64,000 nucleotides of DNA, taken from NCBI GenBank assembly GCA_043826565.1, contig JBDRPX010000038.1, positions 70,334 through 134,333 of the forward strand, read 5' to 3'. Below, piece after piece: positions 10,521 through 57,603 of this stretch; the first letter of the stretch is position 1; each line of letters begins with the position of its first letter. Both the position numbers and the translations under genes were made by a program. Under the pieces are notes generated by a model. That model searched no databases. It was not told the origin of the DNA and worked only from the letters and a program-made list of their open reading frames with translations. Origin of the DNA: Candidatus Omnitrophota bacterium (GTDB lineage: Bacteria; Omnitrophota; Gorgyraeia; B26-G9).

Positions 10521-12223
10521 CTGATTATGATCGCCTGGGTGAATTACTAATCCAGAAAAAGATTATAACTGAGGAGCAGCTTGAAAATGCATTAATCAGG
10601 CAGAAAAAGTCTAATTTAAGACTTGGCGAAGAGCTCATTCGCAGTGGGATGGTAAATGAGGAAAGTGTTTTATCTATTCTTGCGGAATCGATGAATATAC
10701 CGTTTATAAAATTAAGAGACGAAACAATAGACGAACAGCTTATTGAAAAGATTCCCGCCCGTTTTGTTACTCACTATAATTTCATGCCTTTACGTGAGGA
10801 TGGGGGAATTCTCGCTATTGCGATTAGTGACCCCCATGATTTATATACCATAGATGAGATAAGATTATTATTAAAACAGCCGTTGAAAATATTTTTGGCA
10901 ACTTCTTTAGAAATAAGTGAGGCGATAAAGAAATTTTATGGGGTGGGAGCCAAAACTATGGCCCAGATGTTTGAAGATTCCCAACAGCTGGAAATTATTC
11001 CTCAGAAAGAAAAAGACATTACCCAAGAAAGTGCCGATGGAACAGACGACCCTTCGGTAATAAATTTTATAGATCAGGTTATCCGCCAGGCAGTAAAGGA
11101 AAGAGCTACTGATATACATATTGAGCCTTATGAAGGTAATTTGCGTTTAAGGTATAGGATTGATGGTTTGCTTTACGATGTGCCTGTTCCTTCGACAATA
11201 CATCATTTTCAATCGGCAATTTTTATTAGGTTAAAAATTATGTCGGATTTGGATATTGCCGAAAAAAGATTACCGCAAGACGGCAGGATAAAAGTTAGGG
11301 TCGATGGTGAGTTTTATGATTTGAGAATTTCAATTTTGCCGACAAATTTCGGGGAAAGTATAGAAATAAGAATACTTTCCAGGAAACAGATATTTTTTAA
11401 TTTAGAACAACTAGGGCTGGATAAGATCGGCTTAGCTATCCTTAATAGCATGATAAAACGGCCGCATGGGATAATTCTGGTTACCGGGCCCACTGGCAGC
11501 GGAAAAACCACCACGTTGTATTCATGTTTAAACAAGATTAACGCTGCCGAAAGAAAGATTATAACGATTGAAGATCCTATAGAATACCAGCTTCAGGGAG
11601 TTACGCAAGTACAGGTTAGGCCTAAGATCAATCTTACCTTTGCGGATGGTTTGCGCTCTATGCTCAGACATGATCCGGATATCATGATGGTCGGAGAAAT
11701 TCGTGATTTAGAAACAGCAGAGTTGGCCATAAGAACGGCCTTGACCGGTCATTTGGTGTTCAGTACTTTGCATACTAATGATGCTCCGGGAGCGGTTGCC
11801 CGTTTATTGGATATGGGAATTGAGCCATATTTGGTAGCATCTTCACTTGATTGTGTGATTGCTCAGCGTTTGGTGCGTTTGGTATGTCCGCATTGCAAAG
11901 AAAAAATCAAGCTTCATGAAGAGTTGCTTAGGGAATTTGGAATAAGCACGGAAAAACTCATTGCCCAGGAGTTCTGCCAAGGACGTGGATGTGAAAAATG
12001 TAACTTCACCGGGTATCATGGCCGTACGGCTATTTTTGAAGTGCTTAATATCGATGATTCCATTAAAGAAATGATCCTTAATCGTATCCCGACTAATACA
12101 ATTAAACAAAAAGCTATTGAAAATAAATTAAAAACACTTAGACAGTCAGGATGGGAAAAAGTGATTGCCGGATTGACAACTCCTGAGGAAGTAATTCGTG
12201 TAACGCAGGAAGATACTATATAA
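10517..12223 (+). CDS. gspE: GspE/PilB-type secretion ATPase with N-terminal MshEN-like motifs
   Basis: Walker A GPTGSGKTTT and a C-terminal tetracysteine (CPHC…CEKC). The N-terminal GSPII_E_N carries two RLGxxLxxxGxIxxxxLxxALxxQ-like repeats (RLGELLIQKKIITEEQLENALIRQ, RLGEELIRSGMVNEESVLSILAE). Start overlaps the trpA stop (ATGA). Confidence 0.88.
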   Translation: MTDYDRLGELLIQKKIITEEQLENALIRQKKSNLRLGEELIRSGMVNEESVLSILAESMNIPFIKLRDETIDEQLIEKIPARFVTHYNFMPLREDGGILAIAISDPHDLYTIDEIRLLLKQPLKIFLATSLEISEAIKKFYGVGAKTMAQMFEDSQQLEIIPQKEKDITQESADGTDDPSVINFIDQVIRQAVKERATDIHIEPYEGNLRLRYRIDGLLYDVPVPSTIHHFQSAIFIRLKIMSDLDIAEKRLPQDGRIKVRVDGEFYDLRISILPTNFGESIEIRILSRKQIFFNLEQLGLDKIGLAILNSMIKRPHGIILVTGPTGSGKTTTLYSCLNKINAAERKIITIEDPIEYQLQGVTQVQVRPKINLTFADGLRSMLRHDPDIMMVGEIRDLETAELAIRTALTGHLVFSTLHTNDAPGAVARLLDMGIEPYLVASSLDCVIAQRLVRLVCPHCKEKIKLHEELLREFGISTEKLIAQEFCQGRGCEKCNFTGYHGRTAIFEVLNIDDSIKEMILNRIPTNTIKQKAIENKLKTLRQSGWEKVIAGLTTPEEVIRVTQEDTI

Positions 12224-12256
12224 AAAATCCTGTTCAGGCAGGAAGAAGGAACTATA

Positions 12257-13462
12257 ATGCCTGTTTTTATCTACAAAGCTAAAGTTAAGCCAAATGTTTT
12301 TAAAACAGGAACTATTGAAGCTGATAGTGAAAAATCCGCCGTAAATAAATTATTACAGTTAAATTACCACCCCATTTCGATAACCCTTGAAGCCGGAAGA
12401 AAATTTAAAAAACACAATTTTTTTCAGAATTTGACCGGAAAGGAAACATATATATTTCTGCGACAATTGTCAAATCTAATCCAGGCGGGGCTTCCGCTGG
12501 TAAAAGCATTGCAAAATATCAGCGTGCAAAGCAGCAACATTAAATTAAGAGTTATCGTGCAGTCGTTGAAAGAAAAAGTCCAAAAAGGAAAAACTTTATC
12601 CGAGGCATTGTCGGATTTTTCGAATTTGTTCAGTTCTCTGGAAATAAGTATGATTAAGGCGGGAGAAGCCAGTGGAACGCTTTCTGAAGTTATTGGAAAA
12701 CTTGCGGATTTAAAAGAAAATGAAATTGCTTTTTCATCAAAAATCAGATCGGCTTTGGCTTATCCGGTCCTTTTATTAGTTGTCGGATTATTAACATTAT
12801 TCATATTAACTACTTTTGTGCTGCCCAAATTCATTGTCCTCTTTCAAGATCTGGGACAGGAACTGCCGTTAATAACCCAAATTTTGATTGCGGTAAGTCT
12901 CTTTTGTAAAAACTGGTGGACAGTTATTATTGCGGTAGGTATATTTGTGGGATTCTCATTAACCGGCTATTTTAAAACGGCCGGTGGAAAACTATGGCTT
13001 GATGCTCTACAGCTGAAGACCCCGATATTAAAGGATGTCGTAACAAAAGTCCAGATTAGCCGATTTTCCCGGACCTTAGGAAGTTTAATAGAGCATGGGG
13101 TGCCTATTCTTAGTTCTCTCCAGGTTGTCGGGGAAATTGCTAGTAATAAGGTTTTTGCTTTGGAGATAAAACGGATACATTCTCAGGTTGCTAAAGGGAA
13201 AAGTATCAGTGAATGCTTGAGAGGGAGCAATATTTTTGATAAAAATACTTTAGATTTAATCTCAGTTGGCGAAGAAGGAGGGCAATTAGAAGAAATGCTT
13301 TTGCGTATAGCAAAGATGAACGAGAGTGAGTCAGCACAAAAGATTGAATCTTTGGTATTTATGCTTGAACCTACATTAATACTAATTCTTGGCGGAGTAG
13401 TTGCGCTTATTGTTGTAGCAATTTTAATGCCGATTTTTCAGATGAATATTTTAATACAATAA
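12257..13462 (+). CDS. gspF: GspF/PilC platform protein
   Basis: 401 aa polytopic protein with the duplicated GspF domain architecture. Confidence 0.85.
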   Translation: MPVFIYKAKVKPNVFKTGTIEADSEKSAVNKLLQLNYHPISITLEAGRKFKKHNFFQNLTGKETYIFLRQLSNLIQAGLPLVKALQNISVQSSNIKLRVIVQSLKEKVQKGKTLSEALSDFSNLFSSLEISMIKAGEASGTLSEVIGKLADLKENEIAFSSKIRSALAYPVLLLVVGLLTLFILTTFVLPKFIVLFQDLGQELPLITQILIAVSLFCKNWWTVIIAVGIFVGFSLTGYFKTAGGKLWLDALQLKTPILKDVVTKVQISRFSRTLGSLIEHGVPILSSLQVVGEIASNKVFALEIKRIHSQVAKGKSISECLRGSNIFDKNTLDLISVGEEGGQLEEMLLRIAKMNESESAQKIESLVFMLEPTLILILGGVVALIVVAILMPIFQMNILIQ

Positions 13463-13485
13463 TATTATTTAATAAGGGGGGGCGA

Positions 13486-13929
13486 ATGCTAAGTGGAAAA
13501 ACAGGATTTACCCGGACAGAGGCAGGGTTTACTTTGATTGAATTAATGCTTGTTGTAATCATCATCGGAACATTGGCGGCGATAGTTATTCCGCGTTTTA
13601 CTGGTCGAGCTGAGCAGGCTCGTAATACCGCGGCAAAGGCTGATCTACTTTCTAACATACCGCTTGCTCTTGATTTATATGAATTGGATAATGGGAGTTT
13701 TCCTACTACTGAGCAGGGGTTGGCTTCACTTGTGCAAAAGCCAAACATTTCGCCTTTACCTAAAAACTGGAATGGCCCATATCTTAAAAAAAAGCCGGTA
13801 GACCCTTGGGGGCAGCAATATGTCTATGTTAGTCCGGGAGTGCATAATAAAGACGACTATGATCTGCATTCGCTGGGTAAAGACGGCGTTGCCGGAGGCG
13901 GGGATGACCTTACCAATTGGGAAGAATAA
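13486..13929 (+). CDS. gspG: major pseudopilin GspG
   Basis: Prepilin leader and cleavage motif G|FTLIELMLVV with Glu at +5. GspG-type C-terminal region (…DPWGQQYVY…). Confidence 0.85.
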   Translation: MLSGKTGFTRTEAGFTLIELMLVVIIIGTLAAIVIPRFTGRAEQARNTAAKADLLSNIPLALDLYELDNGSFPTTEQGLASLVQKPNISPLPKNWNGPYLKKKPVDPWGQQYVYVSPGVHNKDDYDLHSLGKDGVAGGGDDLTNWEE

Positions 13930-14398
13930 TCATGGATTTACATTAATTGAATTACTTGCGGTCATATTAATAATTTCTGTATTAATAAGCCTCAGTATTC
14001 CCACGATAACTAAAACAGCCAGAAAATTTTATTTTATTAATAAAATAAAAACAATAGCTTGCCTTTTTAAATATGTGCGTAATTTGGCGGTATTAGAACA
14101 GAGGGAGTATGAAGCGATTATTGATAGTGACGCTAACACCCTGGAAATTAAACGCCTTGATGAGAATGAATTTACGGAAAAAGAGTTTAAGGCGATCAAT
14201 GATTCTATTTTAAGAGCTCGCAATCTTCCGGATGGATTTTTTATTAAAATGGGAAATGATGATCTAAAGACCAAAGAGATATTCTTTTATCCAAACGGCA
14301 GCTTAACAAGCACAGATATCTATGTTTATGATAAAAAGAACCATGCCGCCCGGATTACGTTGACTGTTAGCGGGCAAATTGTCATGGAGTTTTTATGA
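13904..14398 (+). CDS. minor pseudopilin (GspH-like)
   Basis: ATG at 13904, then KNNHG|FTLIELLAVILI prepilin motif. Overlaps the gspG end by 26 nt. Confidence 0.7.
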   Translation: MTLPIGKNNHGFTLIELLAVILIISVLISLSIPTITKTARKFYFINKIKTIACLFKYVRNLAVLEQREYEAIIDSDANTLEIKRLDENEFTEKEFKAINDSILRARNLPDGFFIKMGNDDLKTKEIFFYPNGSLTSTDIYVYDKKNHAARITLTVSGQIVMEFL

Positions 14399-14757
14399 TT
14401 AAAAAAAAACCGGGGTTTATTTTATTAGAAGTGTTGGTATCTTTGGTTATATTGACTGCGGGTATCTTGGTTCTGATTAGGTCGTTATCCAATATAGTTA
14501 AGAGTAATACAATAATACAAACAAATACTGTTGCCGTTCTATTAGTCGATAATTTATTTACCCGAATTGATTCTGATGAAAAAATTGATGATGAAAATAG
14601 TATGGAAATATTAGGTAAGCAATTTTTTTGGCAGCAGCAGACAACAACCATAAAAGATGATCTTAAAAAAATGATGCTCACTGTTTCTACGGGGGAAAAC
14701 AGCCGGGGAATCAAAACTATTTTTAGCAGCACTTTTATAGACACAGAAGATCAGTAA
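14395..14757 (+). CDS. minor pseudopilin (GspI-like)
   Basis: KKPG|FILLEVLVSL prepilin motif; 120 aa. ATGA overlap with the preceding gene. Confidence 0.65.
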   Translation: MIKKKPGFILLEVLVSLVILTAGILVLIRSLSNIVKSNTIIQTNTVAVLLVDNLFTRIDSDEKIDDENSMEILGKQFFWQQQTTTIKDDLKKMMLTVSTGENSRGIKTIFSSTFIDTEDQ

Positions 14758-14812: not shown

Positions 14813-16003
14813 ATGACGATTTCAGTAGGGATTGGGAAAAGCAAGGAGATTGATTCATTTGCCGCCGGAGCTTTGGCAGTTGCCGAAGCTCTTGATATGA
14901 TGGGCAGCAATGATCCGGATATATTATTTTGCTTTGCTTCATCCAGGTTTGAGCATTTTGAACTTATTCGCGGTGTGAAAAGTACGGTATCTTCAGCACC
15001 GCTTATCGGCTGTACAACAGCAGGCGAAATAACATCTAAAGGACCGGATACAAAGTCAGTTGTTATTTTAGCGCTAAAATCTGATAATCTTCATGCGGCG
15101 ATTGGAATAGGTAAGAATATTAGCAAACAATCCCGAACTGCGGGACAAGAAGTAGCCCGGGACACAGTTATTAAAACAAGGCGGGGAGCAATACGTCATG
15201 CTTTTATGATGTTTCCGGATGGGTTAAAAGGTAATAGCGCTGATATTATTAGAGGTGTTCAGGAGGTCCTGGGAACTAGTTTCCCGATTGTCGGTGGAGC
15301 CGCGGCAGATGATTTTCTCTTTCAAAAGACTTATCAGTATTATGATGACGGCGTGTTTGATGATAGTGTCGGAGGTGTTTTATTCTCCGGGGATATTAGT
15401 TTCGGTATTGGAGCGCGTCATGGCTGGTATCCTTTGGGAAAACCAAGGATTGTAACTGCTGCCGAGCATAATATAATCAAAAAACTTGATGGAAAGCCGG
15501 CGGCGAGGATTTATGAGGATTATTTTGGGAAGCGTGTGGCTGATTTGCAAAACGAACCGATGGCCCGGATGTCAGTCATGTATCCTTTGGGTATGAGTAT
15601 TCCCGGCGAGGAAGAGTGTATTGTTAGAAATGCTTTAAGAGTTGATGCGGAGGGATCTTTGATTTGCGCTGGTGAAGTCCCCAAGGGCTCTGAGATCAGG
15701 GTAATGATGGGATCAAAGGAAACCGCATTAAAAGCAGCAAAAAAAGCGTCTCAAATAGCCTTGGGTGCTTTACGTAAATCCAAGGCCGAAGTGGTGTTTG
15801 TTTTTGATTCTGTATCCCGGGGAAGGTTGTTTGGAAGAAATGCTTCTCAGGAGATTGATGTAGTTAAGGAAATTTTCGGAGTAAATACCCCGATAATCGG
15901 GTTTTATACTTATGGGGAACAAGCTCCGTTGGGTGCGACGATTAATTTGGGGCAGACATTTTTTCATAATGAAACAATTGTTGTTTTTGCATTAGGAGAG
16001 TAA
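14813..16003 (+). CDS. FIST-domain sensor protein
   Basis: 396 aa with the FIST_N/FIST_C layout (…GFYTYGEQAPLG… C-terminal signature). Confidence 0.7.
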   Translation: MTISVGIGKSKEIDSFAAGALAVAEALDMMGSNDPDILFCFASSRFEHFELIRGVKSTVSSAPLIGCTTAGEITSKGPDTKSVVILALKSDNLHAAIGIGKNISKQSRTAGQEVARDTVIKTRRGAIRHAFMMFPDGLKGNSADIIRGVQEVLGTSFPIVGGAAADDFLFQKTYQYYDDGVFDDSVGGVLFSGDISFGIGARHGWYPLGKPRIVTAAEHNIIKKLDGKPAARIYEDYFGKRVADLQNEPMARMSVMYPLGMSIPGEEECIVRNALRVDAEGSLICAGEVPKGSEIRVMMGSKETALKAAKKASQIALGALRKSKAEVVFVFDSVSRGRLFGRNASQEIDVVKEIFGVNTPIIGFYTYGEQAPLGATINLGQTFFHNETIVVFALGE

Positions 16004-16008
16004 AGTTT

Positions 16009-17589
16009 GTGAAAATCAATATTTGGTTAATACTGATAATCGGGGCTGCTGTACTTAGCGTAGTGGTTATTGTTGATAGCATGGTTGCTAAGCTAATGGG
16101 CGGGTTTATACTTTTGGTATTATTAGCATATCTGGCGGAACTTTCCCGAGAGGAAAGAGAGCAGATCTATAAAATGCAGCGTGCTTTGGATAAATTAAGA
16201 AATGCATATAGTGAACTGGATGAACAGGCAAAAATTATTATTCGCACTGACTTAGAACTAAATCGCACACAAGAAGAGCTGGATAAGAAAATTAACGGTT
16301 TATATACGCTGCATGAACTTGGAAAACTAATGAGTTCCGCGCTTGATGTTCAAAAGCTTTTTGCCCAGATAACTGAACCGCTTATTCTTAAACTTGGGTT
16401 TGAGAAAACTATTATATTTCTTAACGAAGGTATTCCTCCTAAAGCCGAATGTAAGGCTTGTATCGGACTTAGCCATTCCCGCATTGAGGAGCTTAAGCAG
16501 GAGCATCTAAAAAGCGAGTTCCTTAAAGGGGTTTTTGAAAGCGGTAGTTCTATTCTTGTTAAAAGCCGGGAGTCGGCAAACCCGGAAGAACGCATATGGC
16601 TTAAATTCTTTGATGTTTCTTCATTTGTAATTGTTCCGATTGTTATAAAAGAGCAGGTGGAAGGGTATATCTTCGTCGGGAACAATAATCCTTATGTGCA
16701 TATTTCCGAGGGTGATATTGATTTAATGTTTATTTTATCAAATCAGGTTGCCGTTGCTTTGGAAAATGCCCGTCTTTATGAAGAATTAAAACGCTCTCAT
16801 GATGAGCTGGAAATTCGCGTGGAAGAAAGAACCCGTGAATTGGCGGAAGCGAATACTAAACTTGTAAAACTTGACAAGATGAAGTCTGACTTTGTGTCTG
16901 CTGTTTCGCATGAATTACGTACTCCGCTTACTTCCATAAAAGGATATGCGGCAATTCTTGGTGCCGGCCGGCTGGGGGATGTCTCAGATGTACAAAAAGA
17001 AAAATTAAATAAAATCAATGTGCATAGTGATGAATTGATTAAGCTGGTAAATGATCTTTTAGATATCGCGCGGATAGAATCCGGCAAAATCGGCATGAGT
17101 ATTAAACATTCATCATTAACTGATATAATTAAGAGTGTGGCTGACTTATTCTTTCCTCAGACTGATGAAAAGAATATTAATTTAGTGCTCAATATGCCGG
17201 AGGAAGCATTATTGGTTTGGATGGATCCGAGCCAAATATCCCGTGTTTTTATAAATTTAATTGGTAATGCATTGAAATTCACGCCTCAAGGCGGTGAAAT
17301 AGCCATACGTGTTTTACCGGGTGATGATTTTATAACTGTTGAAGTTGCCGACTCAGGTATCGGGATAAGTAGAGAAGATTTAGCCCGGGTTTTTGATGAG
17401 TTTTATCGGGTTGACAACGCAATTAATGTTGAGAAAAAAGGAACTGGTTTAGGTTTGCCGCTGGTCAGTAAAATTGTGGCTGCACATAAAGGAAAAATCT
17501 GGGTTTCAAGTGAACTGGGTAAGGGGACAACATTTCATTTTACGTTATCCACTAATAAGGTGGAAGATTCACAGATAAATGTTGCTTGA
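16009..17589 (+). CDS. membrane GAF-domain sensor histidine kinase
   Basis: GTG start 5 nt after the FIST stop. Two TM helices, a GAF domain, an H-box SHELRTPL, and HATPase_c motifs (GNALKFT, DSGIGI, GTGLGL). Confidence 0.85.
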   Translation: MKINIWLILIIGAAVLSVVVIVDSMVAKLMGGFILLVLLAYLAELSREEREQIYKMQRALDKLRNAYSELDEQAKIIIRTDLELNRTQEELDKKINGLYTLHELGKLMSSALDVQKLFAQITEPLILKLGFEKTIIFLNEGIPPKAECKACIGLSHSRIEELKQEHLKSEFLKGVFESGSSILVKSRESANPEERIWLKFFDVSSFVIVPIVIKEQVEGYIFVGNNNPYVHISEGDIDLMFILSNQVAVALENARLYEELKRSHDELEIRVEERTRELAEANTKLVKLDKMKSDFVSAVSHELRTPLTSIKGYAAILGAGRLGDVSDVQKEKLNKINVHSDELIKLVNDLLDIARIESGKIGMSIKHSSLTDIIKSVADLFFPQTDEKNINLVLNMPEEALLVWMDPSQISRVFINLIGNALKFTPQGGEIAIRVLPGDDFITVEVADSGIGISREDLARVFDEFYRVDNAINVEKKGTGLGLPLVSKIVAAHKGKIWVSSELGKGTTFHFTLSTNKVEDSQINVA

Positions 17590-17597
17590 AAGGAAAA

Positions 17598-18536
17598 ATG
17601 AGGAAGCAGAAAATTCTTATTGTTGATGATGAGCCGGATATTCGTGATGTGTTAAAGATTACGCTTGAGTGCGAAGGATATGATGTCGTTGAATCTACCG
17701 ATGGGATAGACGGTCTTTCCAAAGTGCATAAAGCAGCTCCGGATCTTGTAATTTTGGATAATAAGATGCCGAAGATGACCGGGCAAGAAGTGTGTGAGAT
17801 ATTAAAAAAAGATATCCTTCTGAGGCATATGCCGATTATTATGCTGACCGGAAAAGGAGAGATCCAGGATAAAATTAAAGGAATTGACGCCGGAGCAGAT
17901 GATTATATAGTAAAGCCGTTTGAGCCGCAAGAGCTGGTTGCGAGAATAAAAATGATTTTACGTAGAAGTTCACGAGATTTGGATGCTAATCCGTTAAGTC
18001 GTTTGCCGGGAAATGCGACAATCTTAAGTGAATTGGAAGATGCGATAAAAAGTAATAAACCCTTTGCCATATGCTATCTGGATCTTGACAAATTTAAATC
18101 TTTTAACGATACTTATGGATTTGAACATGGAGATGAGGTTATCCGGGAAACCGCCAGAATTATTCTCATGACAGTTATCGAAATGGGGAACAAAGAGGAC
18201 TTTGTCGGACATATCGGTGGTGATGATTTTGTTGTACTTACTACTTTGGATAAAGCAGAGCCTATTTGTAAAAAAATAATTGAGGCTTTCGACAAAGTTG
18301 CTCCGGCTTTTTATAATTTAGAGGACCGGCAGCGAAAATATATTCTGGCTAAAGATCGGAAGGGGAATGCGGAAAAGATTCCGCTGATTTCAATCTCGAT
18401 AGGAATTGTAACGAATGAGTTTCGGACGATTACCCATGTGGCGGAAATTGGCGAAATCGGAGCGGATTTAAAGAAACTGGCAAAGGCAACTCCGGAAAGC
18501 AATTATGTCCGAGACAGCCGTAAAACTGAAGCATAA
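17598..18536 (+). CDS. response regulator: REC + GGDEF-like domain (GGDDF variant)
   Basis: REC domain (ILIVDDEPD…LDNKMP). The GGDEF fold is recognisable (LDLDKFKSFNDTYGFEHGDEV…HIGGDDFVV), but the signature reads GGDDF and the I-site RxxD is replaced by KED. Confidence 0.75.
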   Translation: MRKQKILIVDDEPDIRDVLKITLECEGYDVVESTDGIDGLSKVHKAAPDLVILDNKMPKMTGQEVCEILKKDILLRHMPIIMLTGKGEIQDKIKGIDAGADDYIVKPFEPQELVARIKMILRRSSRDLDANPLSRLPGNATILSELEDAIKSNKPFAICYLDLDKFKSFNDTYGFEHGDEVIRETARIILMTVIEMGNKEDFVGHIGGDDFVVLTTLDKAEPICKKIIEAFDKVAPAFYNLEDRQRKYILAKDRKGNAEKIPLISISIGIVTNEFRTITHVAEIGEIGADLKKLAKATPESNYVRDSRKTEA

Positions 18537-40156: not shown

Positions 40157-43100
40157 ATGAAACATGCCGACTTTGTTCATCTTCACGTACATAGTCAGTA
40201 CAGCTTATTGGACGGAGCCTGCCAAGTAGGTAAACTGGTTGATTTAGCGCAGACAATGCGTATGCCGGCACTAACCATCACCGATCATGGGAACATTTTC
40301 GGTGCTGTAGAATTTTACATTGAAGCGATGAAGAAAGGTATAAAGCCGATTATCGGATGTGAAACCTATGTTGCAAAAACAAGTAGATTTAAAAAGATAG
40401 AAGCTGGAATAAGAGAACAATCTCACCATTTAACTCTCCTGGTAAAAAATGAACAAGGTTATAAAAATTTAATACGCCTGGTTACTATCGCGTATCTGGA
40501 AGGGTTTTATTATAAGCCAAGAATAGATAAAGAAGTTCTGGGGCTATATATCAGCGGATTAATCGGTCTTTCCGGATGTTTAAAAGGGGAAATTTCTTCT
40601 TTATTTACAGAAGGTAAAGAAAAAGAAGCTTATGATGTTGCCCAGCAGTATAAAGAACTGTTTGAGCCGGAAAGCTTCTATTTAGAACTCATGGATCACG
40701 GCATTCCTGAACAAAAGAAAGTAAACCGGCAATTAATAAAACTTGGTAAAGATCTGAATATTCCTTTAGTTGCTACTAATGATGTTCATTATTTAAAAAA
40801 GGATATGGCGCATGCTCATGAGGTATTGCTTTGTATCCAGACCCAGACAAATCTTGATGACTCAACGCGGATGAAATTAAAAACTGATGAATTTTATTTT
40901 AAGTCAGCTGAAGAAATGAAGAAATTATTTGCGGAAGTTCCGGAAGCAATTTCAAATACGATCAAGATAACGGAAATGTGTAATCTGGAAATTGATTTTA
41001 GTAAAACGCATTTACCGCAGTATAAACTCCCCGGAGGTCTAACGGCAATTGAAGCTTTAAAACAGGAATGCCTGAAAGTAATTGATTCTAAATATACTAC
41101 GAATCGGGAAGTTGCCGGGAATAGACTGGAGCAGGAGCTGTCGGTTATAAAAAATTCAGGATTCGCCAGCTACTTTTTAATTACTGCGGATTTTGTGCAT
41201 TTTGCTAAACGCAATAGTATCCCTGTTGGTCCGGGAAGAGGATCAGCCGCCGGCAGTATTGTAAGCTACCTTATGGGTATAACTGAGATTGATCCTTTGA
41301 AATATGATCTTCTCTTTGAAAGATTTCTGAATCCGGAAAGAGTCACGTTCCCGGATATTGATATTGACTTTTGTTATGAAAGACGTGATGAAGTTATTAA
41401 ATATGTAACCGAAAAGTATGGGGAAGATAATGTAGCACAAATTATTACTTTTGGAACTATGGCCGCAAAAGGAGTGCTTCGGGATGTCGGAAGAGTAATG
41501 GGCATTCCTTATGCTGATGTTGATAAAATCGCCAAGCTGGTGCCTAATGATCTGAATATAACACTAGCCCAGGCTGTGGAAGCGGAGCCGGAACTAAAGT
41601 TACTTTATCGTTCAGATAAAACTATTAAAGATCTTATCAACACATCCTATGTTCTTGAAGGACTAACTCGACATGCCTCAACTCATGCTGCGGGAGTGGT
41701 TATAAGTGATAAGCCTCTTTATGAATACATTCCGCTTTTTAAGTCTTCTGAGGGACAGATAACTACCGGTTTCACCATGAAATCACTTGAAAAAATCGGT
41801 TTGCTGAAAATGGATTTTTTGGGCCTTAAGACGCTTACAGTTATAAATGAAGCTCTTAAAATTGTCAAGCGTACTAAAAATACAGCTATTGATATTCAGA
41901 ATATCAGTTTAGAAGATAATAAAACTTATGAGTTGTTCGCTAATGCTGAAACCGCCGGTGTTTTTCAGCTGGAAAGTTCCGGAATGAGGGAATTGCTAAA
42001 AAAATTAAAACCGGATAAATTTGAAGACATTATCGCATTACTTGCGCTTTATCGTCCCGGCCCCTTGGGCAGTGGAATGGTTGATGACTTTATCAATAGA
42101 AAAAGAAAAGGCGCAAAGGTTCGTTACGATCATAAGCTGCTTGAGCCGGTACTAAAAGATACGTATGGAATTATACTTTATCAGGAGCAGGTCATGCGTA
42201 TTACTAATGTACTAGCGGGTTTTACATTAGCTCAGGCTGATTTACTGCGTCGAGCTATCGGGAAAAAGATACCTGAGGTAATTGAGAACCAGCGAAAATC
42301 ATTTATAGACGGTGCGCAAAAAAATAATATCGGCAAGAAAATCGCCGAAAGAATTTTTGATCTTATTGAATATTTTGCCGGATACGGTTTTAATAAAAGC
42401 CATTCTGCAGCATATGCGATGATTTCTTACCAAACAGCTTTTCTTAAAGCTAACTTTCCTGTAGAATTTATGGCCGCATTGCTATCGAGCGAAAAAGATA
42501 ATACTGATAAAATAGCTCGTTATATAAATGAAATGAAGCGTATGAAAATACGCATATTACCACCTGATGTTAATGAAAGTTTCTCTCAGTTCACTGTGGT
42601 CGGAGATGATGCGATAAGATTCGGACTTTCGGCAGTTAAAAACGTAGGAAAAGGGGCTGTTGAAGCAATTATTCAGGCTAGAAAATCCGGCGGACCGTTT
42701 ACTTCTCTGGTGAATTTTTGTGAAAGAGTAGATATGAAATCAGCAAACAAAAAAGTCTTAGAAAGTTTAATTAAGTGCGGTGCTTTCGACGGAAAAAGCG
42801 CAAATAGAGCGCAATTGATGGCGGGGTTGGAAAAAATAATGAGTCTTGCCAGTTCTCTTCAGAGAGATCGGCAAAGTGGTCAATTATTGCTTTTTCAAAA
42901 TCCCCAGGAGTCTAAAGGATTGCAAAGTGACTTGCCTGATGTTGAAGAATGGCCGATGTTACAATTACTGTCAAATGAAAAGATGATGTTAGGCTTTTAT
43001 ATTACCGCCCACCCCTTAGAACAATATGATAAAATACTTAAAAGATATGCAATCTTAACAATAACGGAGCTTTTGAATAAAAAAACCATTCCTAATGAGA

Positions 43101-43597
43101 TCTATGTTGCCGGGATTTTAGAAAAAGTAAAAGTAACACTTACAAAAAGGTCTGCGGAAAAAATGGCAATTATTAGAATGGAAGACTTAGAAACATCCCT
43201 GGACCTTTTAGTCTTTCCGGAAACATATCGGAAGACTTCTTCCTGTATTGAAGAAGATAAACTTGTTGTTGTTCAGGGTAAGCTGGATTTAAGGGAAGAT
43301 ACTCCCAAAATCATCGCTTCGAATATTATACCTATTGAAGATATATCTGCAGCATTAGTCAGCAGTATAAATCTGAATATTTCTGGTTTAGCCGCTAAGA
43401 AAAAAGAACTGGCAAAGTTAAAAGAAACAATCCTGTCTCACCCGGGGAAAACCCCTGTCCATCTGGCAATGGGTGCGGCGGCAGGAAGAAAAATCAAGAT
43501 CAAGGCAGAAGCTAGTGTTAATGTTAATAATGAACTGCTCGCTCAACTGGAAGATATCCTGGGAAAAGAAGATGTTTGTATATCTATAAAAAAATAG
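40157..43597 (+). CDS. dnaE: DNA polymerase III alpha subunit
   Basis: 1146 aa with PHP domain (HLHVHSQYSLLDG), polymerase core and OB fold. Confidence 0.92.
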   Translation: MKHADFVHLHVHSQYSLLDGACQVGKLVDLAQTMRMPALTITDHGNIFGAVEFYIEAMKKGIKPIIGCETYVAKTSRFKKIEAGIREQSHHLTLLVKNEQGYKNLIRLVTIAYLEGFYYKPRIDKEVLGLYISGLIGLSGCLKGEISSLFTEGKEKEAYDVAQQYKELFEPESFYLELMDHGIPEQKKVNRQLIKLGKDLNIPLVATNDVHYLKKDMAHAHEVLLCIQTQTNLDDSTRMKLKTDEFYFKSAEEMKKLFAEVPEAISNTIKITEMCNLEIDFSKTHLPQYKLPGGLTAIEALKQECLKVIDSKYTTNREVAGNRLEQELSVIKNSGFASYFLITADFVHFAKRNSIPVGPGRGSAAGSIVSYLMGITEIDPLKYDLLFERFLNPERVTFPDIDIDFCYERRDEVIKYVTEKYGEDNVAQIITFGTMAAKGVLRDVGRVMGIPYADVDKIAKLVPNDLNITLAQAVEAEPELKLLYRSDKTIKDLINTSYVLEGLTRHASTHAAGVVISDKPLYEYIPLFKSSEGQITTGFTMKSLEKIGLLKMDFLGLKTLTVINEALKIVKRTKNTAIDIQNISLEDNKTYELFANAETAGVFQLESSGMRELLKKLKPDKFEDIIALLALYRPGPLGSGMVDDFINRKRKGAKVRYDHKLLEPVLKDTYGIILYQEQVMRITNVLAGFTLAQADLLRRAIGKKIPEVIENQRKSFIDGAQKNNIGKKIAERIFDLIEYFAGYGFNKSHSAAYAMISYQTAFLKANFPVEFMAALLSSEKDNTDKIARYINEMKRMKIRILPPDVNESFSQFTVVGDDAIRFGLSAVKNVGKGAVEAIIQARKSGGPFTSLVNFCERVDMKSANKKVLESLIKCGAFDGKSANRAQLMAGLEKIMSLASSLQRDRQSGQLLLFQNPQESKGLQSDLPDVEEWPMLQLLSNEKMMLGFYITAHPLEQYDKILKRYAILTITELLNKKTIPNEIYVAGILEKVKVTLTKRSAEKMAIIRMEDLETSLDLLVFPETYRKTSSCIEEDKLVVVQGKLDLREDTPKIIASNIIPIEDISAALVSSINLNISGLAAKKKELAKLKETILSHPGKTPVHLAMGAAAGRKIKIKAEASVNVNNELLAQLEDILGKEDVCISIKK

Positions 43598-43629
43598 GTA
43601 TAATAAATAATTAACACAAGGAGAATAAA

Positions 43630-45024
43630 ATGGAAGAAACCTTTGACCTATATAATGAACTGCGAGCAAATACACGGATACGCGCCCGATTAAAGGTCCA
43701 AATACAGCAAGTCAATACTGATGGGTCTTTAGCCCAAACGGTGCTGACAATGGCTAAGGATATCAGTACTACCGGAATACTAGTCGACCTGGATAATGCC
43801 TTACCATTACATTCGAAGATAAAAGTATCCTTTAGGCTGCCCCAAGTGCAACTACCAGTTGAAATAATAACCAAGGTTGTTCGTGTAGAGGAATTTAAAA
43901 ATGGTAGGTTTGGCATTGGAATGATATTTGAAGATATTCTAAATGATAATAAAGAGGAGATAATTAAGAGAATTGAAGTGATGGATATTCTGAAGCTCTT
44001 ACAGGTTACTTATCAAAGAAAAGCCTCAGATTTACATCTTACTTATAACCGCCCGCCAACTTTACGATTGCATGGGCGATTGATTCCTATGGAAACAGAC
44101 CCGTTAGGAACATTAGAATTAAAGAATTTGATTTACAGTATTCTTACTGATGAACAAATAGCCCGCTTTGAAAAATTTCGCGAGCTGGATTTTGCTTTCT
44201 CACCAAACCCTGAGCTGAGATTTAGAGTTAATGTCCATGTGCAAAGAGGCAATGTCGAAGCTACTTTTCGCGTAATTATGCCGGATTTAAAGACATTACA
44301 AGAGCTTGGCTTACCAACTGTAGTAGAGGATTTGGCTTTACGAAAAAAAGGTATTGTTGTGATTGCCGGACCTACAGGGAGTGGAAAAACAACAACTCTG
44401 GCCGCGATGGTAGATATAATTAACCGGAAAAGAGAAGCAGTAATATTGTGCCTTGAAGATCCTATAGAATACATACACAAAAATCTGAATTCTATTATTA
44501 AGCAAAGAGAAATAGGTTCTGATACACTATCTTTTTCCGTAGCGCTTAAAAGAACGCTTCGTCAAGATCCTGATGTTATTGTAGTAGGAGAGTTACTTGA
44601 CGCGGAAACGGTACGTACAGTAGTAACTGCTGCGGAAACCGGGCATTTAGTTCTTACCTCACTGCATGCTCCGGATACAGTACAGGCTATCGACCGACTC
44701 ATAAGCATCTTTCCTCCTCAACAACGTCACCAGGCATGTGTACAGCTGGCAAATAGTTTGCAGGGGATCGTAACACAACTACTTGTTCCTAAAAAGGATA
44801 GGGAAACACGGGTTATTGCTACAGAGGTTATGGTAATGACTGATGCTATTCGCAATCATATTCGCGAAGGACAAACCATACAAATTCCTTCAACTATTCA
44901 AACTGGAGCCAAATATAGAATGCATACAATGGCAGAAAGCTTTAAACGTTTATATTACAACAACATAATCTCTAAAGAGACCGCTCTTGACAATTGTCCG
45001 GAGTTGGCCCAAATAATAACTTGA
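43630..45024 (+). CDS. PilZ-domain fused to PilT/PilU-type retraction ATPase
   Basis: N-terminal ~110 aa has PilZ motifs RANTR (RxxxR) and DISTTG (DxSxxG). The remainder is a PilT ATPase (GPTGSGKTTT Walker A; LxxAxxTGHLVLTSLHA). Confidence 0.75.
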   Translation: MEETFDLYNELRANTRIRARLKVQIQQVNTDGSLAQTVLTMAKDISTTGILVDLDNALPLHSKIKVSFRLPQVQLPVEIITKVVRVEEFKNGRFGIGMIFEDILNDNKEEIIKRIEVMDILKLLQVTYQRKASDLHLTYNRPPTLRLHGRLIPMETDPLGTLELKNLIYSILTDEQIARFEKFRELDFAFSPNPELRFRVNVHVQRGNVEATFRVIMPDLKTLQELGLPTVVEDLALRKKGIVVIAGPTGSGKTTTLAAMVDIINRKREAVILCLEDPIEYIHKNLNSIIKQREIGSDTLSFSVALKRTLRQDPDVIVVGELLDAETVRTVVTAAETGHLVLTSLHAPDTVQAIDRLISIFPPQQRHQACVQLANSLQGIVTQLLVPKKDRETRVIATEVMVMTDAIRNHIREGQTIQIPSTIQTGAKYRMHTMAESFKRLYYNNIISKETALDNCPELAQIIT

Positions 45025-45086
45025 CATAAAAAATGCGATATGATAAAATTTTTCAGTAGTCATTGATAAATGGAAGGATACGAAAA

Positions 45087-45572
45087 ATGATAGATCGGAA
45101 TTTAGAAAGTAAAATAAACCAAATCAAGGATTTTATTGTTTTATGGGAACAATATTATAAACTATACAAACAAACGGCAAATTCCCCAACGTTTACGGAA
45201 GAAGACGAAAAAAACTTTTTGGAACTTAAAAGTAGTTTAGCTAGAAAATATCAGGGTTTAATGGATTCCTTGGGAATTAAACCTACTGCTGAGGACAGAA
45301 CATTTGATGTAATTTCGCAAGTGATGAGTTTAAAAGGTGCTGCGTCCATGTCCCCATTACAGTTACAGAAATTAGAAAATGATTGGCATAATTCATACAT
45401 TACTTTAAATAAGATCATGGGATCCCTCGAAAACCGCAAATCTGAACTAGCTAAAGTCAATGTAATGGGAGAGTTTTTAAAAAAAATATTCACCAATCCG
45501 TTTTTTAATTTGGTGTTAATCATTGTTGTAATTTATTTTATATATTACGTTGTGACAACCATATTAAAGTAA
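45087..45572 (+). CDS. hypothetical tail-anchored membrane protein
   Basis: Soluble helical domain plus a single C-terminal TM helix (FFNLVLIIVVIYFIYYVV). GGAAGGA RBS before the ATG at 45087. Confidence 0.4.
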   Translation: MIDRNLESKINQIKDFIVLWEQYYKLYKQTANSPTFTEEDEKNFLELKSSLARKYQGLMDSLGIKPTAEDRTFDVISQVMSLKGAASMSPLQLQKLENDWHNSYITLNKIMGSLENRKSELAKVNVMGEFLKKIFTNPFFNLVLIIVVIYFIYYVVTTILK

Positions 45573-48548: not shown

Positions 48549-48920
48549 ATGGATAACCACAGGCCCTTTGACGAAAGAAGGAGCTTTTCGAGAATAAATA
48601 TTCCAGAAGTCAGGGCAAATTTCAAATTGCTTAATTTGCGCACCTATTCGACCTACCTTGAAAAAAATCCAGAGCCGGTAGAAAATATTAGTCTTGGCGG
48701 AATGTTATTAAAGAGTTATAATCATTTAGAGAAAAAAACTCCGGTGGCAATCGATTTGAAAGTCGGAACTGAAAATTATTTGATGAGGATTTTCGGCCGG
48801 ATTGCCTGGATAAAGGAAGTAGAAAAAAATGATTACTTGATGGGTATTAGTTTTTCTTGGTGGAATAAGGAAGAGGACAAGAAAAGAATACGAGAATTAA
48901 TAGTAAAAAATAAATTCTAA
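48549..48920 (+). CDS. standalone PilZ-domain protein
   Basis: RRSFSR (RxxxR) and NISLGG (D/NxSxxG) motifs. Confidence 0.7.
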   Translation: MDNHRPFDERRSFSRINIPEVRANFKLLNLRTYSTYLEKNPEPVENISLGGMLLKSYNHLEKKTPVAIDLKVGTENYLMRIFGRIAWIKEVEKNDYLMGISFSWWNKEEDKKRIRELIVKNKF

Positions 48921-48941
48921 TGCTCAGGAGATAAACTTTCA

Positions 48942-50441
48942 ATGAAAGTTTCATATAAAGAAGAAACATTTAACAAGCTAATTGAACATCCTAGCTGGAA
49001 AATAGAGCTTGATTGCTTTTCGAAAATTATTGGTAATGCTGAATGGGCGGTGATTTCGGATAATAAGAAGAATTATAAAAGTCTAGGTAAAAACAGCAAG
49101 CTTAAAGCTTTATCATCAAAAGATTCCGTTAAGCATATTAATAAACTTATTCCTCTGGCGCAAAAAAGCCGAAAAATTCAGAAAAAAATATCATCTGACG
49201 GAAGCTGTTTCTATTGCGTACCTGTAATCCGTGGTGATCAAATCTACGGATATATTGGTATTCGCAGTATGAAATCTGAAATCCCACCAAAGTTTTTAGA
49301 ATTATTTCATGCTTTTACGTCTACCACATTAGAAAGCGCTCAAAAGGAGTTGGAACTTGCAAAACTTTCCGAATCCATCAGACCCCGAGCCATAGCTTTA
49401 TCTACGGTACATACAGTTAATCGAATTATTAGTTCAACTCTGGAAATCGAAGAATTGCTTCCGCGAATTGCCCGGCTAAGCTTGCAGGTTTTACGTGCTA
49501 GACGCTGCACAATTATGATGGTTGATAAAAACAAACGATCTTTAGTCCCTCTGGCCGTTATTGATCTTCAGCAAAAAAAACCAAAACAAGCAATTTTAAA
49601 AATGGGACAAGGTCTTCCGGGAAAAGTAATACGGGATGGGAAAACCATTGTTCGAGATCAATATTTATGCGTGCCGTTTGTTTCTGAGGAAAGCATAATT
49701 GGGGCAATAAGCATTTACAATCAAATCGATAATAAGCCTTTTACAATTTTTGATAAGGAGATCCTGACAACACTTGCGGAGCAAGCTGTAATCGCAATTA
49801 AAAATGCGCAGTTATATGATGAGCAGGAAAAATTAACCTTAAACAGCATTAAGGCTTTAGCATCGGTGTTAAGTTCCGGAGTTACTTTTAATTATGGCAG
49901 AACAAATATATTTATAAACATAACAATGTCTATTGGAATGGAGCTTAAACTCAGGTCTGATGAAATGAGAATTTTGTATTACGCCGCCCTGTTGCATAAT
50001 GTCAGCCAGATGAGTTTACCTGAGAAGCTTTTAAAGAAATCAACTAAACTTACCGGAAAAGACTATAAGATAATCAGAGAGCACCCTTTAGTTGGAGCGC
50101 AGATCATCCGACCTATTGGCGGACGGTTAAAATCCGTGTTGCCGATCATAATTTATCATCATGAAAGATATGACGGGGAGGGATATCCCAGTGGGTTAAA
50201 GGGGGATGATATCCCTTTGGGCGCCCGCATCTTAACAGTTGCGGATTCATTCGAGGCAATGCTTTCAATGCGACCTTATAGAAAAAAAATGACTGTATCA
50301 CAAGCCGTAACTGAAATTGTGAAAAACAGTGGTGAGCAGTTTGACCCGGTTATCGTAGATGCTTTTGTTCGTGTCATAAAAAGATTCCGAAATAAAATTT
50401 TCAAAACCGGCAAAAACGCTTGGGTATGGAAAAACTTTTAA
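48942..50441 (+). CDS. GAF + HD-GYP domain c-di-GMP phosphodiesterase
   Basis: HD-GYP signature (HHERYDGEGYP) with an upstream HD motif and a central GAF-like region. Confidence 0.8.
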   Translation: MKVSYKEETFNKLIEHPSWKIELDCFSKIIGNAEWAVISDNKKNYKSLGKNSKLKALSSKDSVKHINKLIPLAQKSRKIQKKISSDGSCFYCVPVIRGDQIYGYIGIRSMKSEIPPKFLELFHAFTSTTLESAQKELELAKLSESIRPRAIALSTVHTVNRIISSTLEIEELLPRIARLSLQVLRARRCTIMMVDKNKRSLVPLAVIDLQQKKPKQAILKMGQGLPGKVIRDGKTIVRDQYLCVPFVSEESIIGAISIYNQIDNKPFTIFDKEILTTLAEQAVIAIKNAQLYDEQEKLTLNSIKALASVLSSGVTFNYGRTNIFINITMSIGMELKLRSDEMRILYYAALLHNVSQMSLPEKLLKKSTKLTGKDYKIIREHPLVGAQIIRPIGGRLKSVLPIIIYHHERYDGEGYPSGLKGDDIPLGARILTVADSFEAMLSMRPYRKKMTVSQAVTEIVKNSGEQFDPVIVDAFVRVIKRFRNKIFKTGKNAWVWKNF

Positions 50442-56004: not shown

Positions 56005-56817
56005 CTATATTTCATTCCAAGAATCTGTAGCAGTGTCTTCTTGAGGAATATTGCCTTCTAAATCCTTAATTAGGACTTTTTCAGGAAGATTAGATTTAAT
56101 GCATATTGTGTTTCGACCGGTTTTTTTATAATTTACCGGAATAGCAAAAACTACAAAAGCTGTCGCGCTGCCGGTATTACTAAGAACTTCATGATAGTAA
56201 TAACCGTTAAAAGCGCTGGCTATATCACGAGCGGAATTTAGATTCCCCAGCTGCGGATCAATAATCTCAAATTTCCCTTCTTTGTTTATAATTAAATCTT
56301 CAGACCTGGCATATTTACCGTAATGTTCATAATATGTTTTTTGGGCAGAACTATATCTTTTTAGCAATTCGATAGCTTCGGCTTCATTTTTCTTGATTAC
56401 AGCCTCCCCTTCCCTTACAAATCGAGAAGACGATGTGTCTAAGCCTGCTATAGTAACTTCTTGCGTATCCTGAGTATCTGCATTCCGTTTTACTAGAATA
56501 ATCTTTTCCGGAACCTCGCGTTTTTTCTTATGATGTTCTTCGCCATCTTCTCCATAGAAACTTTGAACCACACCTAATTTTCCAATAATTCCGGAAGTTT
56601 TAGATTTTTCCATATCCAGGTCTTTTTGAATTTCTTCAATATTCCGGCTGGCCACCAGTGATTTTTCTTCTCCCCCAATAAAGATTTTTCTGTAAGCTGC
56701 CAACAAAGAATCAAAGGCTTGCCATGCCGCGGCGCAAGCAAGTACTAGGGAAAAAACTATCAGGAAACTCATAATACTAACGCGACCTTTGTTGTTTTTA
56801 CTATTTATGAGTCGCAT
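56005..56817 (-). CDS. membrane-anchored hypothetical protein, paralog A
   Basis: N-terminal TM helix. The C-terminal domain aligns with its neighbour (AIELLKRYSSAQKTYYEHYGKYA / IAALLRRYAAAQELYHAQYGVYA; IIDP; AIPVNY/AIPVDY). Confidence 0.55.
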   Translation of the reverse strand: MRLINSKNNKGRVSIMSFLIVFSLVLACAAAWQAFDSLLAAYRKIFIGGEEKSLVASRNIEEIQKDLDMEKSKTSGIIGKLGVVQSFYGEDGEEHHKKKREVPEKIILVKRNADTQDTQEVTIAGLDTSSSRFVREGEAVIKKNEAEAIELLKRYSSAQKTYYEHYGKYARSEDLIINKEGKFEIIDPQLGNLNSARDIASAFNGYYYHEVLSNTGSATAFVVFAIPVNYKKTGRNTICIKSNLPEKVLIKDLEGNIPQEDTATDSWNEI

Positions 56818-56820
56818 CTT

Positions 56821-57603
56821 TTAAAACTCTTCCCAGGTATTATTTATCTCTTTTGAATAAAATATAGGTCTGGCTCCGTTATTCTTCATCATAACCACAT
56901 TTCCGGTCCTTGAAGAAATACATAAAGTATGAAAACCCGTCACACCATAGTCCACCGGTATAGCGCATAGAATATATTCATCTTCTTTATCTTTATATCG
57001 AGAGCCGTTATTAATTGATTCCATGAAATAGTATCCATTGCGGGTATGTTCTTTACTGTCGGCTAGATCTATTACAAAAATATACGGGTCAATAATGCCC
57101 GGGTACCCATCATCTTCAAGTATAAGGTTTTTAGCGGTCATCGCATAGACCCCATACTGAGCATGATATAATTCCTGAGCCGCCGCATAACGTCTTAATA
57201 ATGCGGCAATACTCAGCTCATTAGAGACCAGCTCCAGTCCATTCGCACTTTTCTTACTTCTTTCGTTGATAAAATTATTTAAAATCTCCTCGAGTATCTC
57301 AGGGGAAGCATTGTCGGATTCTTTTTGCTCAAACACATCATTAATGTAAAATTCATCCAAAGCCTGCCGAATTTTTTGTCTTGACGCTTTAGTATATAAA
57401 TGCGCGTTAGTCTTTGGATAGGAGAATGTCTGTCCTTGCTCCGCAGATTCAGGTATGGCCTTCTCCGGGATAACTACAGCATTCATTGTTCTCATAATTC
57501 CCTGAGTTTTTAAATTATAAATATAGGTTGCCGCAGCAAGGCTTATAAGGAATATCATTAAAACCAATAATACCGAATGCAGTTGTGTACTACCTCTTAT
57601 CAT
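56821..57603 (-). CDS. membrane-anchored hypothetical protein, paralog B
   Basis: Paralogous to 56005-56817 (see that entry). Separated from it by 3 nt. Confidence 0.55.
   Translation of the reverse strand: MIRGSTQLHSVLLVLMIFLISLAAATYIYNLKTQGIMRTMNAVVIPEKAIPESAEQGQTFSYPKTNAHLYTKASRQKIRQALDEFYINDVFEQKESDNASPEILEEILNNFINERSKKSANGLELVSNELSIAALLRRYAAAQELYHAQYGVYAMTAKNLILEDDGYPGIIDPYIFVIDLADSKEHTRNGYYFMESINNGSRYKDKEDEYILCAIPVDYGVTGFHTLCISSRTGNVVMMKNNGARPIFYSKEINNTWEEF

Follow-up and report, generated by a model that had tools for sequence, protein, structure and literature searches.

The gene analyzed here lies in a window of 64,000 nt taken from the genome of a Candidatus Omnitrophota bacterium (assembly GCA_043826565.1, contig JBDRPX010000038.1, positions 70,334–134,333, forward strand). 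The window is AT-rich, with a G+C content of about 37%, and the plus strand holds nearly all of the genes up to about 55 kb. The dnaE gene (40157–43597) is directly followed by an open reading frame (ORF) of 464 codons plus stop (43630–45024, +), the product of which combines a PilZ domain with a PilT-type ATPase. A Shine-Dalgarno sequence, AAGGAG (43618–43623, +), can be read directly 7 nt upstream of the ATG start codon. The encoded protein is identical to the protein P0001 of an Omnitrophota metagenome-assembled genome (MAG), which is named “PilT/PilU family type 4a pilus ATPase” at NCBI. A first-pass annotation of the DNA, made from the letters alone, had proposed that a PilZ receptor module for cyclic di-GMP (c-di-GMP) is fused N-terminally to a pilus retraction ATPase. 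A profile search with the 464-aa protein, as suggested there, found both domains. The Pfam PilZ model PF07238 scored 40.6 bits against a gathering score of 22.5 bits, the Pfam T2SSE model PF00437 reached 137 bits, and the NCBIfam model TIGR01420 scored 412.8 bits against a cut-off of 319.1 bits. The motif coordinates were checked through translation.

The ATPase module occupies aa 118–464 (43981–45021, +) and comprises the N2D and C-terminal domain (CTD) of the PilT-type hexameric ATPases, as assigned by TIGR01420, Foldseek and phmmer (E 2.4e-94). The TIGR01420 (pilT_fam) match extends over aa 120–457 (E 1.1e-123, profile positions 2–339 of 343), and the NCBIfam models for GspE, PilB, VirB11, DotB and TraJ all score far under their own cut-offs. 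Conservation was read from an alignment of 51 full-length fusion relatives (A1) and from a wider set of 31 diverse sequences (A2). In the Walker A motif GPTGSGKT (44368–44391, +) the G, T, G, G and K residues are present in 51 of 51 A1 sequences, and the same holds for DPDVI and GE of the Walker B motif with the catalytic glutamate, DPDVIVVGE (44566–44592, +). The Asp box LEDPIEY and the His box ETGHLVLTSLHA are invariant or nearly so in these sequences. The segment AIRNHIRE at aa 406–413 (44845–44868, +) matches the PilT-specific AIRNLIRE, and its A, I, R and E positions are kept in 50 or 51 of the 51 proteins. The best Foldseek hits are the Geobacter PilT4 structures 5zfq and 6ojx, with 46–47% identity and target-normalised TM-scores of 0.86–0.91. 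PilT2 of T. thermophilus (5fl3) and PilT of P. aeruginosa (3jvv) follow with about 42% identity each, then PilU with 38% and DotB with 25–28%. The earlier designation as PilT/PilU type thus holds for PilT, as evident from AIRNHIRE and the identity to Geobacter PilT4; the protein is less PilU-like. Judged by these comparisons, the ATPase is a PilT orthologue with intact catalytic motifs, and hexamer formation as well as retraction of type IVa pili are predicted for it.

Two divergent members of the fusion family deviate in the catalytic motifs. P0134 has IIVLDQ where the GE of Walker B is expected, and the Walker A motif of P0145 reads GRTNNGKT. Given these degenerate ATPase motifs, some members of the family may have turned into non-catalytic c-di-GMP receptors. 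Many further proteins of about 700–800 aa (among P0035–P0120), from Myxococcota, Bradymonadia, Victivallaceae and others, were aligned via the ATPase part only. With about twice the size of PilT they look like tandem PilT–PilT fusions, another unusual PilT architecture.

The PilZ domain spans aa 11–113 (43660–43968, +; PF07238, E 3.5e-10, profile positions 2–98 of 102). The N-terminal 110 aa, on whose score as PilZ the first-pass annotation had staked its proposal, thus do score as such. Both c-di-GMP motifs that it had called canonical were recovered and are nearly invariant. The RxxxR motif is R12-A-N-T-R16 (RANTR, 43663–43677, +) and lies in the N-terminal loop; the (D/N)xSxxG motif is D44-I-S-T-T-G49 (DISTTG, 43759–43776, +). 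R12 and R16 are each found in 51 of 51 A1 sequences, and all 31 sequences of A2 have R or K at the first position and R at the second. In the second motif, A1 shows D or N at position 44 (51/51), I45 (51/51), S46 (50/51) and G49 (51/51), and the ligand-contact motifs are likewise kept in A2. They are also kept in 8 more divergent representatives of clusters at 50% identity, which were confirmed by Pfam as PilZ plus T2SSE. Mean pairwise identity is 39% in the surrounding barrel (minimum 18%) but reaches 74% in the N2D and 73% in the CTD of PilT. By this comparison purifying selection on the ligand-contact residues is strong throughout the family, with a much tighter constraint than on the rest of PilZ. 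Since the contact residues are far more constrained than the rest of the domain, c-di-GMP binding is probably retained. The domain is canonical-looking in every tested sequence feature, and specific binding of c-di-GMP is predicted. A degenerate PilZ was ruled out by the invariant motifs. An MshEN-type receptor was ruled out as well, for the domain is absent from the fusion: MshEN (PF05157) gave no Pfam match. A PilZN (YcgR-N) domain in front of PilZ, which begins at aa 11, was also not matched.

The AlphaFold2 model of the fusion, a monomer built on A1 with a mean pLDDT (predicted local distance difference test score) of 82.4, shows aa 1–17 as a disordered loop of pLDDT below 50 that bears the RxxxR motif. 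A six-stranded barrel follows at aa 21–103 (strands 21–28, 38–45, 49–54, 63–68, 77–88 and 94–103), and after it a helix at aa 108–129; pLDDT is 82–89 across the region of barrel and helix. The PilZ profile had a single match in the PDB, B. subtilis YpfA (5vx6). A Foldseek comparison with the PDB returned no solved chain covering aa 1–117 of the fusion.

The helix at aa 108–129 (43951–44016, +) connects the two modules, as the C-terminal helix of PilZ runs into helix 1 of PilT. Residue 1 of P. aeruginosa PilT aligns with M118 of the fusion. The junction is nearly free of indels, with one single-residue insertion in total among 31 diverse sequences. Because the connecting helix is continuous and the junction nearly indel-free, PilZ is, according to the model, rigidly joined to PilT: it is welded on without a flexible linker and in a fixed register. 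An artefact of gene calling or assembly that merged two genes was ruled out by the single ORF and by the fixed length of the junction in dozens of independent assemblies. The methionine matching residue 1 of canonical PilT is kept inside the fusion (M118, codon at 43981), and the adjoining D119 is invariant. A PilZ-less PilT isoform may arise through internal initiation at M118; no strong internal Shine-Dalgarno sequence was seen by eye before this codon.

The first-pass annotation had also suggested a survey of PilZ–PilT fusions, and a family was indeed found. It consists of 51 full-length relatives and about 8 more divergent clusters. Some 31 clusters from Omnitrophota or the Planctomycetes–Verrucomicrobia–Chlamydiae (PVC) group have 70–82% identity, and a second tier of 52–57% identity comes from MAGs labelled only “bacterium”. 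All clusters of both tiers have the precomputed domain pair PF07238+PF00437. An exhaustive HMMER search with the PilZ module only (aa 1–125) against 1.84 billion cluster representatives gave 94 matches, in which 8 additional full-length or truncated representatives were recognised by Pfam as PilZ plus T2SSE. In one of the 8 divergent clusters there is a protein whose MAG bears the label Patescibacteria. The PilZ module alone had zero matches in a word index of 5.8 billion proteins, with which it has too few words in common. To locate the gene in genomes, one genome for each of 185,579 GTDB species was scanned with the junction signature ASDLHLTY[NG]. This signature was derived from the junction alignment A5, as the conservation in the diverse N-terminal alignment A2 was too low for a locus signature. 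The scan returned 28 loci, 26 of them with the fusion and the other 2 with ordinary PilT genes. The number of 26 is a lower bound, for the most divergent fusions lack the signature. Fifteen loci belong to an Omnitrophota clade and 11 to a second clade, whose genomes are labelled “bacterium”, “Pseudomonadota bacterium” or Omnitrophota and in which two loci may be halves of one gene. All carriers among the 26 loci are MAGs, mostly of Omnitrophota. The architecture is therefore real and rare; it recurs in independent assemblies and is found in at least two clades, so far only in uncultured lineages.

Neighborhood data for the family beyond the window come from the loci of these relatives. In the Omnitrophota clade the gene order is guaA, dnaE, PilZ–PilT, a gene for a 161-aa protein, HU, hisS and a dGTPase-type HD phosphohydrolase, followed by a stand-alone PilZ, a GAF-HD-GYP-type protein and a SPOR protein. 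A mobile-element or defence setting was ruled out by the neighbors dnaE, guaA, HU, hisS and the dGTPase-type HD phosphohydrolase. According to Pfam and translation, the stand-alone PilZ of the window (48549–48920, +) is canonical, with RSFSR and NISLGG, and lies immediately upstream of the gene for the GAF-HD-GYP-type protein (48942–50441, +; both genes together 48549–50441). In 13 of the 15 Omnitrophota loci such a stand-alone PilZ gene follows the fusion at a distance of a few kb, and in L001 and L005 the HD-GYP-type gene comes after it. The two may form a receptor–enzyme module. The neighbors of the fusion in the second clade differ from those in the Omnitrophota clade. Pilus genes lie 5–8 kb from the fusion in three of its loci, namely a pilB(MshEN)-pilT-pilC-pilS cluster in L004 (= L032), pilB and a pilT fragment in L030, and pilB in L029.

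In the window itself, Pfam and ORF analysis placed a PilB/GspE-type ATPase with MshEN, a PilC/GspF protein, a GspG-type major pilin and two minor pilins at 10517–14757 (+). No pilT gene was found in this cluster, which lies 32 kb upstream of the fusion and, we infer, belongs with it. The ATPase gene (10517–12223, +) encodes the tandem 24-residue motifs of MshEN at 10532–10690, RLGELLIQKKIITEEQLENALIRQ-KKSNL-RLGEELIRSGMVNEESVLSILAES, with the canonical 5-residue spacer. Motif 1 deviates by a K at the expected conserved turn glycine, and motif 2 ends in S, not Q. The extension motor encoded in the window may thus also sense c-di-GMP. Genes for a FIST-domain protein, a GAF histidine kinase and a REC-GGDEF-type regulator (14813–18536, +) come directly after the pilB-pilC-pilin cluster, which suggests a sensory cascade wired to the adjoining pilus or type II secretion system (T2SS)-like system. 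Elsewhere in the window, upstream of minus-strand genes for a response regulator and a PAS histidine kinase, there are two adjacent paralogous ORFs of 270 and 260 aa (56005–57603, −); each has an N-terminal hydrophobic segment, and neither gave a Pfam match.

The gene directly downstream of the fusion (45087–45572, +) encodes a conserved hypothetical protein of 161 aa. Its start is the ATG at 45087, and the homologues all begin with MID and have about 161 aa. AlphaFold2 (pLDDT 88.5) predicts a cytoplasmic helical bundle and a C-terminal transmembrane (TM) helix at aa 138–160 (PFFNLVLIIVVIYFIYYVVTTILK), with one residue beyond it. The soluble helical domain and single C-terminal TM helix that had been read from the sequence are therefore borne out by the model. 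The description as tail-anchored is valid for the clade of the window and fails for distant homologues, which have a tail of 20–48 aa beyond the TM helix. Taken together, the descriptions of the fusion and of the downstream membrane protein in the first-pass annotation are correct, far beyond chance. The 161-aa protein has no Pfam match, and comparison of its model with PDB folds gave nothing significant (best E-value 0.095). Detectable homologues are confined to Omnitrophota-like MAGs. A sigma-70-like promoter, TTGACA-17-TAAAAT with an extended −10 TG (45021–45049, +; 11/12 match, the best in the region), sits in the 62-bp spacer between the fusion and the 161-aa gene and overlaps the stop codon of the fusion. 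It was compared across four genomes, those of the window, L001, L005 and L006, whose proteins are 65–82% identical. The −35 element is invariant, and the −10 element is conserved, reading TAATAT in the other three.

The same first reading had taken the 161-aa protein for a candidate membrane partner of the ATPase. Some observations are compatible with such an anchor: both genes are on the same strand, no terminator was found in the 62-bp gap between them, and the 161-aa gene lies directly downstream of the fusion in all 15 loci of the Omnitrophota clade and in L001, L005 and L006. However, this adjacency is uninformative because the clade shares long-range synteny from dnaE through hisS and beyond. 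The profile of the 161-aa family found nothing within 8–10 kb of the fusion in any of the 11 second-clade loci or with the further divergent fusions L008 and L009, and it found no member in L010. Conversely, the divergent homologues P0274 (L007) and P0269 keep the HU–hisS neighbors, and PilZ–PilT is absent within 8 kb of them. The conserved promoter lies between the two genes, and no relative in Pfam or the PDB ties the protein to pilus machinery. In the co-occurrence analysis that had been suggested for the pair, the two genes were thus found together in one clade and never in the other, which is not beyond inherited synteny. It is highly improbable that the 161-aa protein anchors the PilZ–PilT ATPase or serves as its membrane partner. 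Its gene probably tracks the HU–hisS block with a transcript start of its own, and the protein is probably no dedicated partner of the ATPase and not part of the device.

Full-text literature searches found no published account of the PilZ–PilT architecture, in agreement with the earlier remark that it is not recognisable as a characterised system, and no ATPase fusion is mentioned in two surveys of PilZ architectures. The proteins themselves are not new, being public under a generic PilT/PilU name; it is the architecture that appears uncharacterised. The control of pilus dynamics by c-di-GMP through the extension motor is established (PMC11656802, PMC5013675). Extension ATPases and adaptors are the only routes of c-di-GMP input described in the MshEN paper and in a review of PilB regulation from 2024 (PMC5013675, PMC11656802). 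In the table of a review from 2023, the entry for V. cholerae PilT and c-di-GMP is “no binding” (PMC10333796).

The closest functional parallel is offered by ATPases of the MshE/PilB type, such as V. cholerae MshE, C. perfringens PilB2 and M. xanthus PilB, which also carry an N-terminal c-di-GMP receptor on a hexameric motor of the PilT/VirB11 superfamily (PMC5013675, PMC11656802). Their receptor, however, is the helical MshEN with tandem 24-residue motifs on an extension motor, joined through a flexible N1D–N2D linker, whereas the fusion has a PilZ β-barrel on a retraction ATPase and a rigid helix at the junction. By the features tested, the fusion is a member of the PilZ and PilT families that would function like the MshEN ATPases yet stands outside that family. 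Canonical PilT (P. aeruginosa 3jvv; Geobacter PilT4 5zfq and 6ojx) shares with it the identity of 42–47% over the whole ATPase, the TM-scores given above, the catalytic motifs and AIRNxIRE, but begins at the equivalent of M118 and has no sensor domain. In the PilZ(PA2960/XAC1133)–FimX–PilB system a PilZ-fold protein likewise sits physically on a type IV pilus ATPase, which it connects with c-di-GMP signaling (PMC8389850). That PilZ, however, has no binding motifs, does not bind c-di-GMP and contacts PilB in trans, and the signal enters via the EAL domain of FimX. In YcgR and MotI (YpfA), known as brakes and clutches of the flagellar motor, a canonical PilZ lets c-di-GMP inhibit a motility motor mechanically, as predicted for the fusion; these are separate proteins with PilZN that act in trans on the flagellar stator or rotor, whereas the PilZ of the fusion is placed in cis on a pilus ATPase. 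In the BcsA cellulose synthase, a PilZ domain in cis gates the enzyme activity allosterically. BcsA differs from the fusion in being a glycosyltransferase with a C-terminal PilZ and an activating effect of the ligand.

It is reasonable to infer from the two modules that pilus retraction would be under direct control of c-di-GMP. We propose, with moderate confidence, that the retraction ATPase is gated directly by c-di-GMP via the fused PilZ and that high c-di-GMP acts as a brake. In the proposed mechanism c-di-GMP, probably as an intercalated dimer, would be clamped, as other PilZ domains do it, between the RxxxR loop (aa 12–16) and the face of the barrel bearing DxSxxG, and its binding would order the disordered loop. 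With the barrel rigidly coupled to N2D, this would lead to repacking of the six peripheral PilZ modules, which would gain or lose contact with the neighboring N2D/CTD units or with the PilC/PilM platform. The altered packing would limit the cycling of subunits between open and closed states, which powers the extraction of pilins. Retraction would be braked at high c-di-GMP, and extended pili would persist for attachment, which agrees in sense with c-di-GMP activation of the MshEN extension ATPase encoded 32 kb upstream. The proposal is favored by the genomic context: in the second clade the fusion lies near pilus genes (L029, L030, L004), the window holds pilB(MshEN), pilC and pilins without pilT, and it encodes c-di-GMP components of the REC-GGDEF, PilZ and GAF-HD-GYP types. 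Several observations weigh against it. The fusion sits among housekeeping genes (dnaE, HU, hisS) without a functional link at the operon level, and, as the AlphaFold2 prediction covers a monomer, the proposed packing of PilZ in a hexamer is conjectural. The REC-GGDEF-type protein (17586–18536, +) reads GGDDF, which is non-canonical. The GAF-HD-GYP-type protein has HN (aa 352) for HD, with HHE...GYP intact. Both may be receptors or altered enzymes and not an active cyclase and phosphodiesterase. Since both turnover-type enzymes have non-canonical active sites, c-di-GMP synthesis is not demonstrable from the window.

The sign of the effect is the weakest step, as brake or activator cannot be derived from sequence. 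A brake is favored because high c-di-GMP favors extended pili and attachment in the studied systems (PMC7096442, PMC11656802), and because the region encodes an MshEN-type extension ATPase that the same signal should stimulate. Both points count against the reverse assumption that c-di-GMP activates the ATPase or recruits the motor to the pilus base, with high c-di-GMP triggering retraction; a single signal driving both motors would be less coherent. The evidence for ligand binding is nevertheless the same for either sign. PilZ domains in cis can activate, as known from BcsA and Alg44, and where canonical PilT coexists with the fusion (L004, L030), a conditionally activated extra paralogue would be sensible. 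Activation could proceed, for example, by release of an autoinhibitory PilZ–N2D contact as in BcsA or by localisation of the motor, and might help a cell that has made contact with a host or prey to pull itself onto it, to name one possible use. The sign-reversed interpretation is a serious rival, although we regard it as possible rather than probable.

The fusion might also work outside type IVa pili, in a T2SS-like pseudopilus or secretion, in DNA uptake or as a regulatory PilT paralogue, with PilZ still sensing c-di-GMP. The sole pilin cluster of the window is GspG-type, that is, of a T2SS-like pseudopilin kind that needs no PilT by itself, and in the Omnitrophota clade the fusion has no linkage with pilus genes. 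The second clade also has a canonical PilT, so that the fusion may serve as an accessory paralogue in that clade and not as the principal retraction motor. Such a role is nonetheless unlikely: the TIGR01420 cut-off for PilT/PilU is exceeded by 90 bits, the identity to the Geobacter PilT4 retraction ATPases 5zfq and 6ojx is 46–47% as opposed to 25–28% for DotB, AIRNxIRE is kept, and pilB-pilT-pilC genes are nearby in three second-clade loci. It is less likely still that PilZ is a protein-interaction adaptor without c-di-GMP signaling, comparable to PA2960 and XAC1133, which dock on PilB. Non-binding PilZ proteins that regulate pilus ATPases are well documented (PMC8389850), but proteins of this kind have neither RxxxR nor DxSxxG. 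The fusion keeps both motifs in more than 50 sequences while the barrel drifts, and its PilZ score exceeds the Pfam gathering threshold.

If c-di-GMP gates retraction through the fused PilZ, its known points of entry into type IV pili would be extended. These are the extension motor, through the MshEN of MshE/PilB, or adaptors such as FimX and PilZ, and PilT is regarded as blind to c-di-GMP (PMC10333796). A PilT with a built-in, rigid PilZ sensor would show that direct gating of retraction is possible, and the fusion would offer a compact single-polypeptide system in which to set peripheral ligand binding against the conformational cycle of the PilT hexamer. A sensor-bearing PilT is noteworthy to specialists, yet it extends logically what is known of how c-di-GMP controls pili. 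Since every carrier is a MAG, experiments on the fusion depend on heterologous expression. The fusion adds a concrete c-di-GMP output in Omnitrophota, a phylum without cultured models. We suggest only tentatively that it is the sole retraction ATPase in the lineage of the window and that, together with the MshEN PilB, it forms a two-sided c-di-GMP switch acting on both motors, with extension on and retraction off. If the proposal is true, the fusion would be the first class of PilT that is itself a second-messenger receptor, and such a switch might let ultra-small, possibly host-dependent cells lock their pili onto a partner cell.

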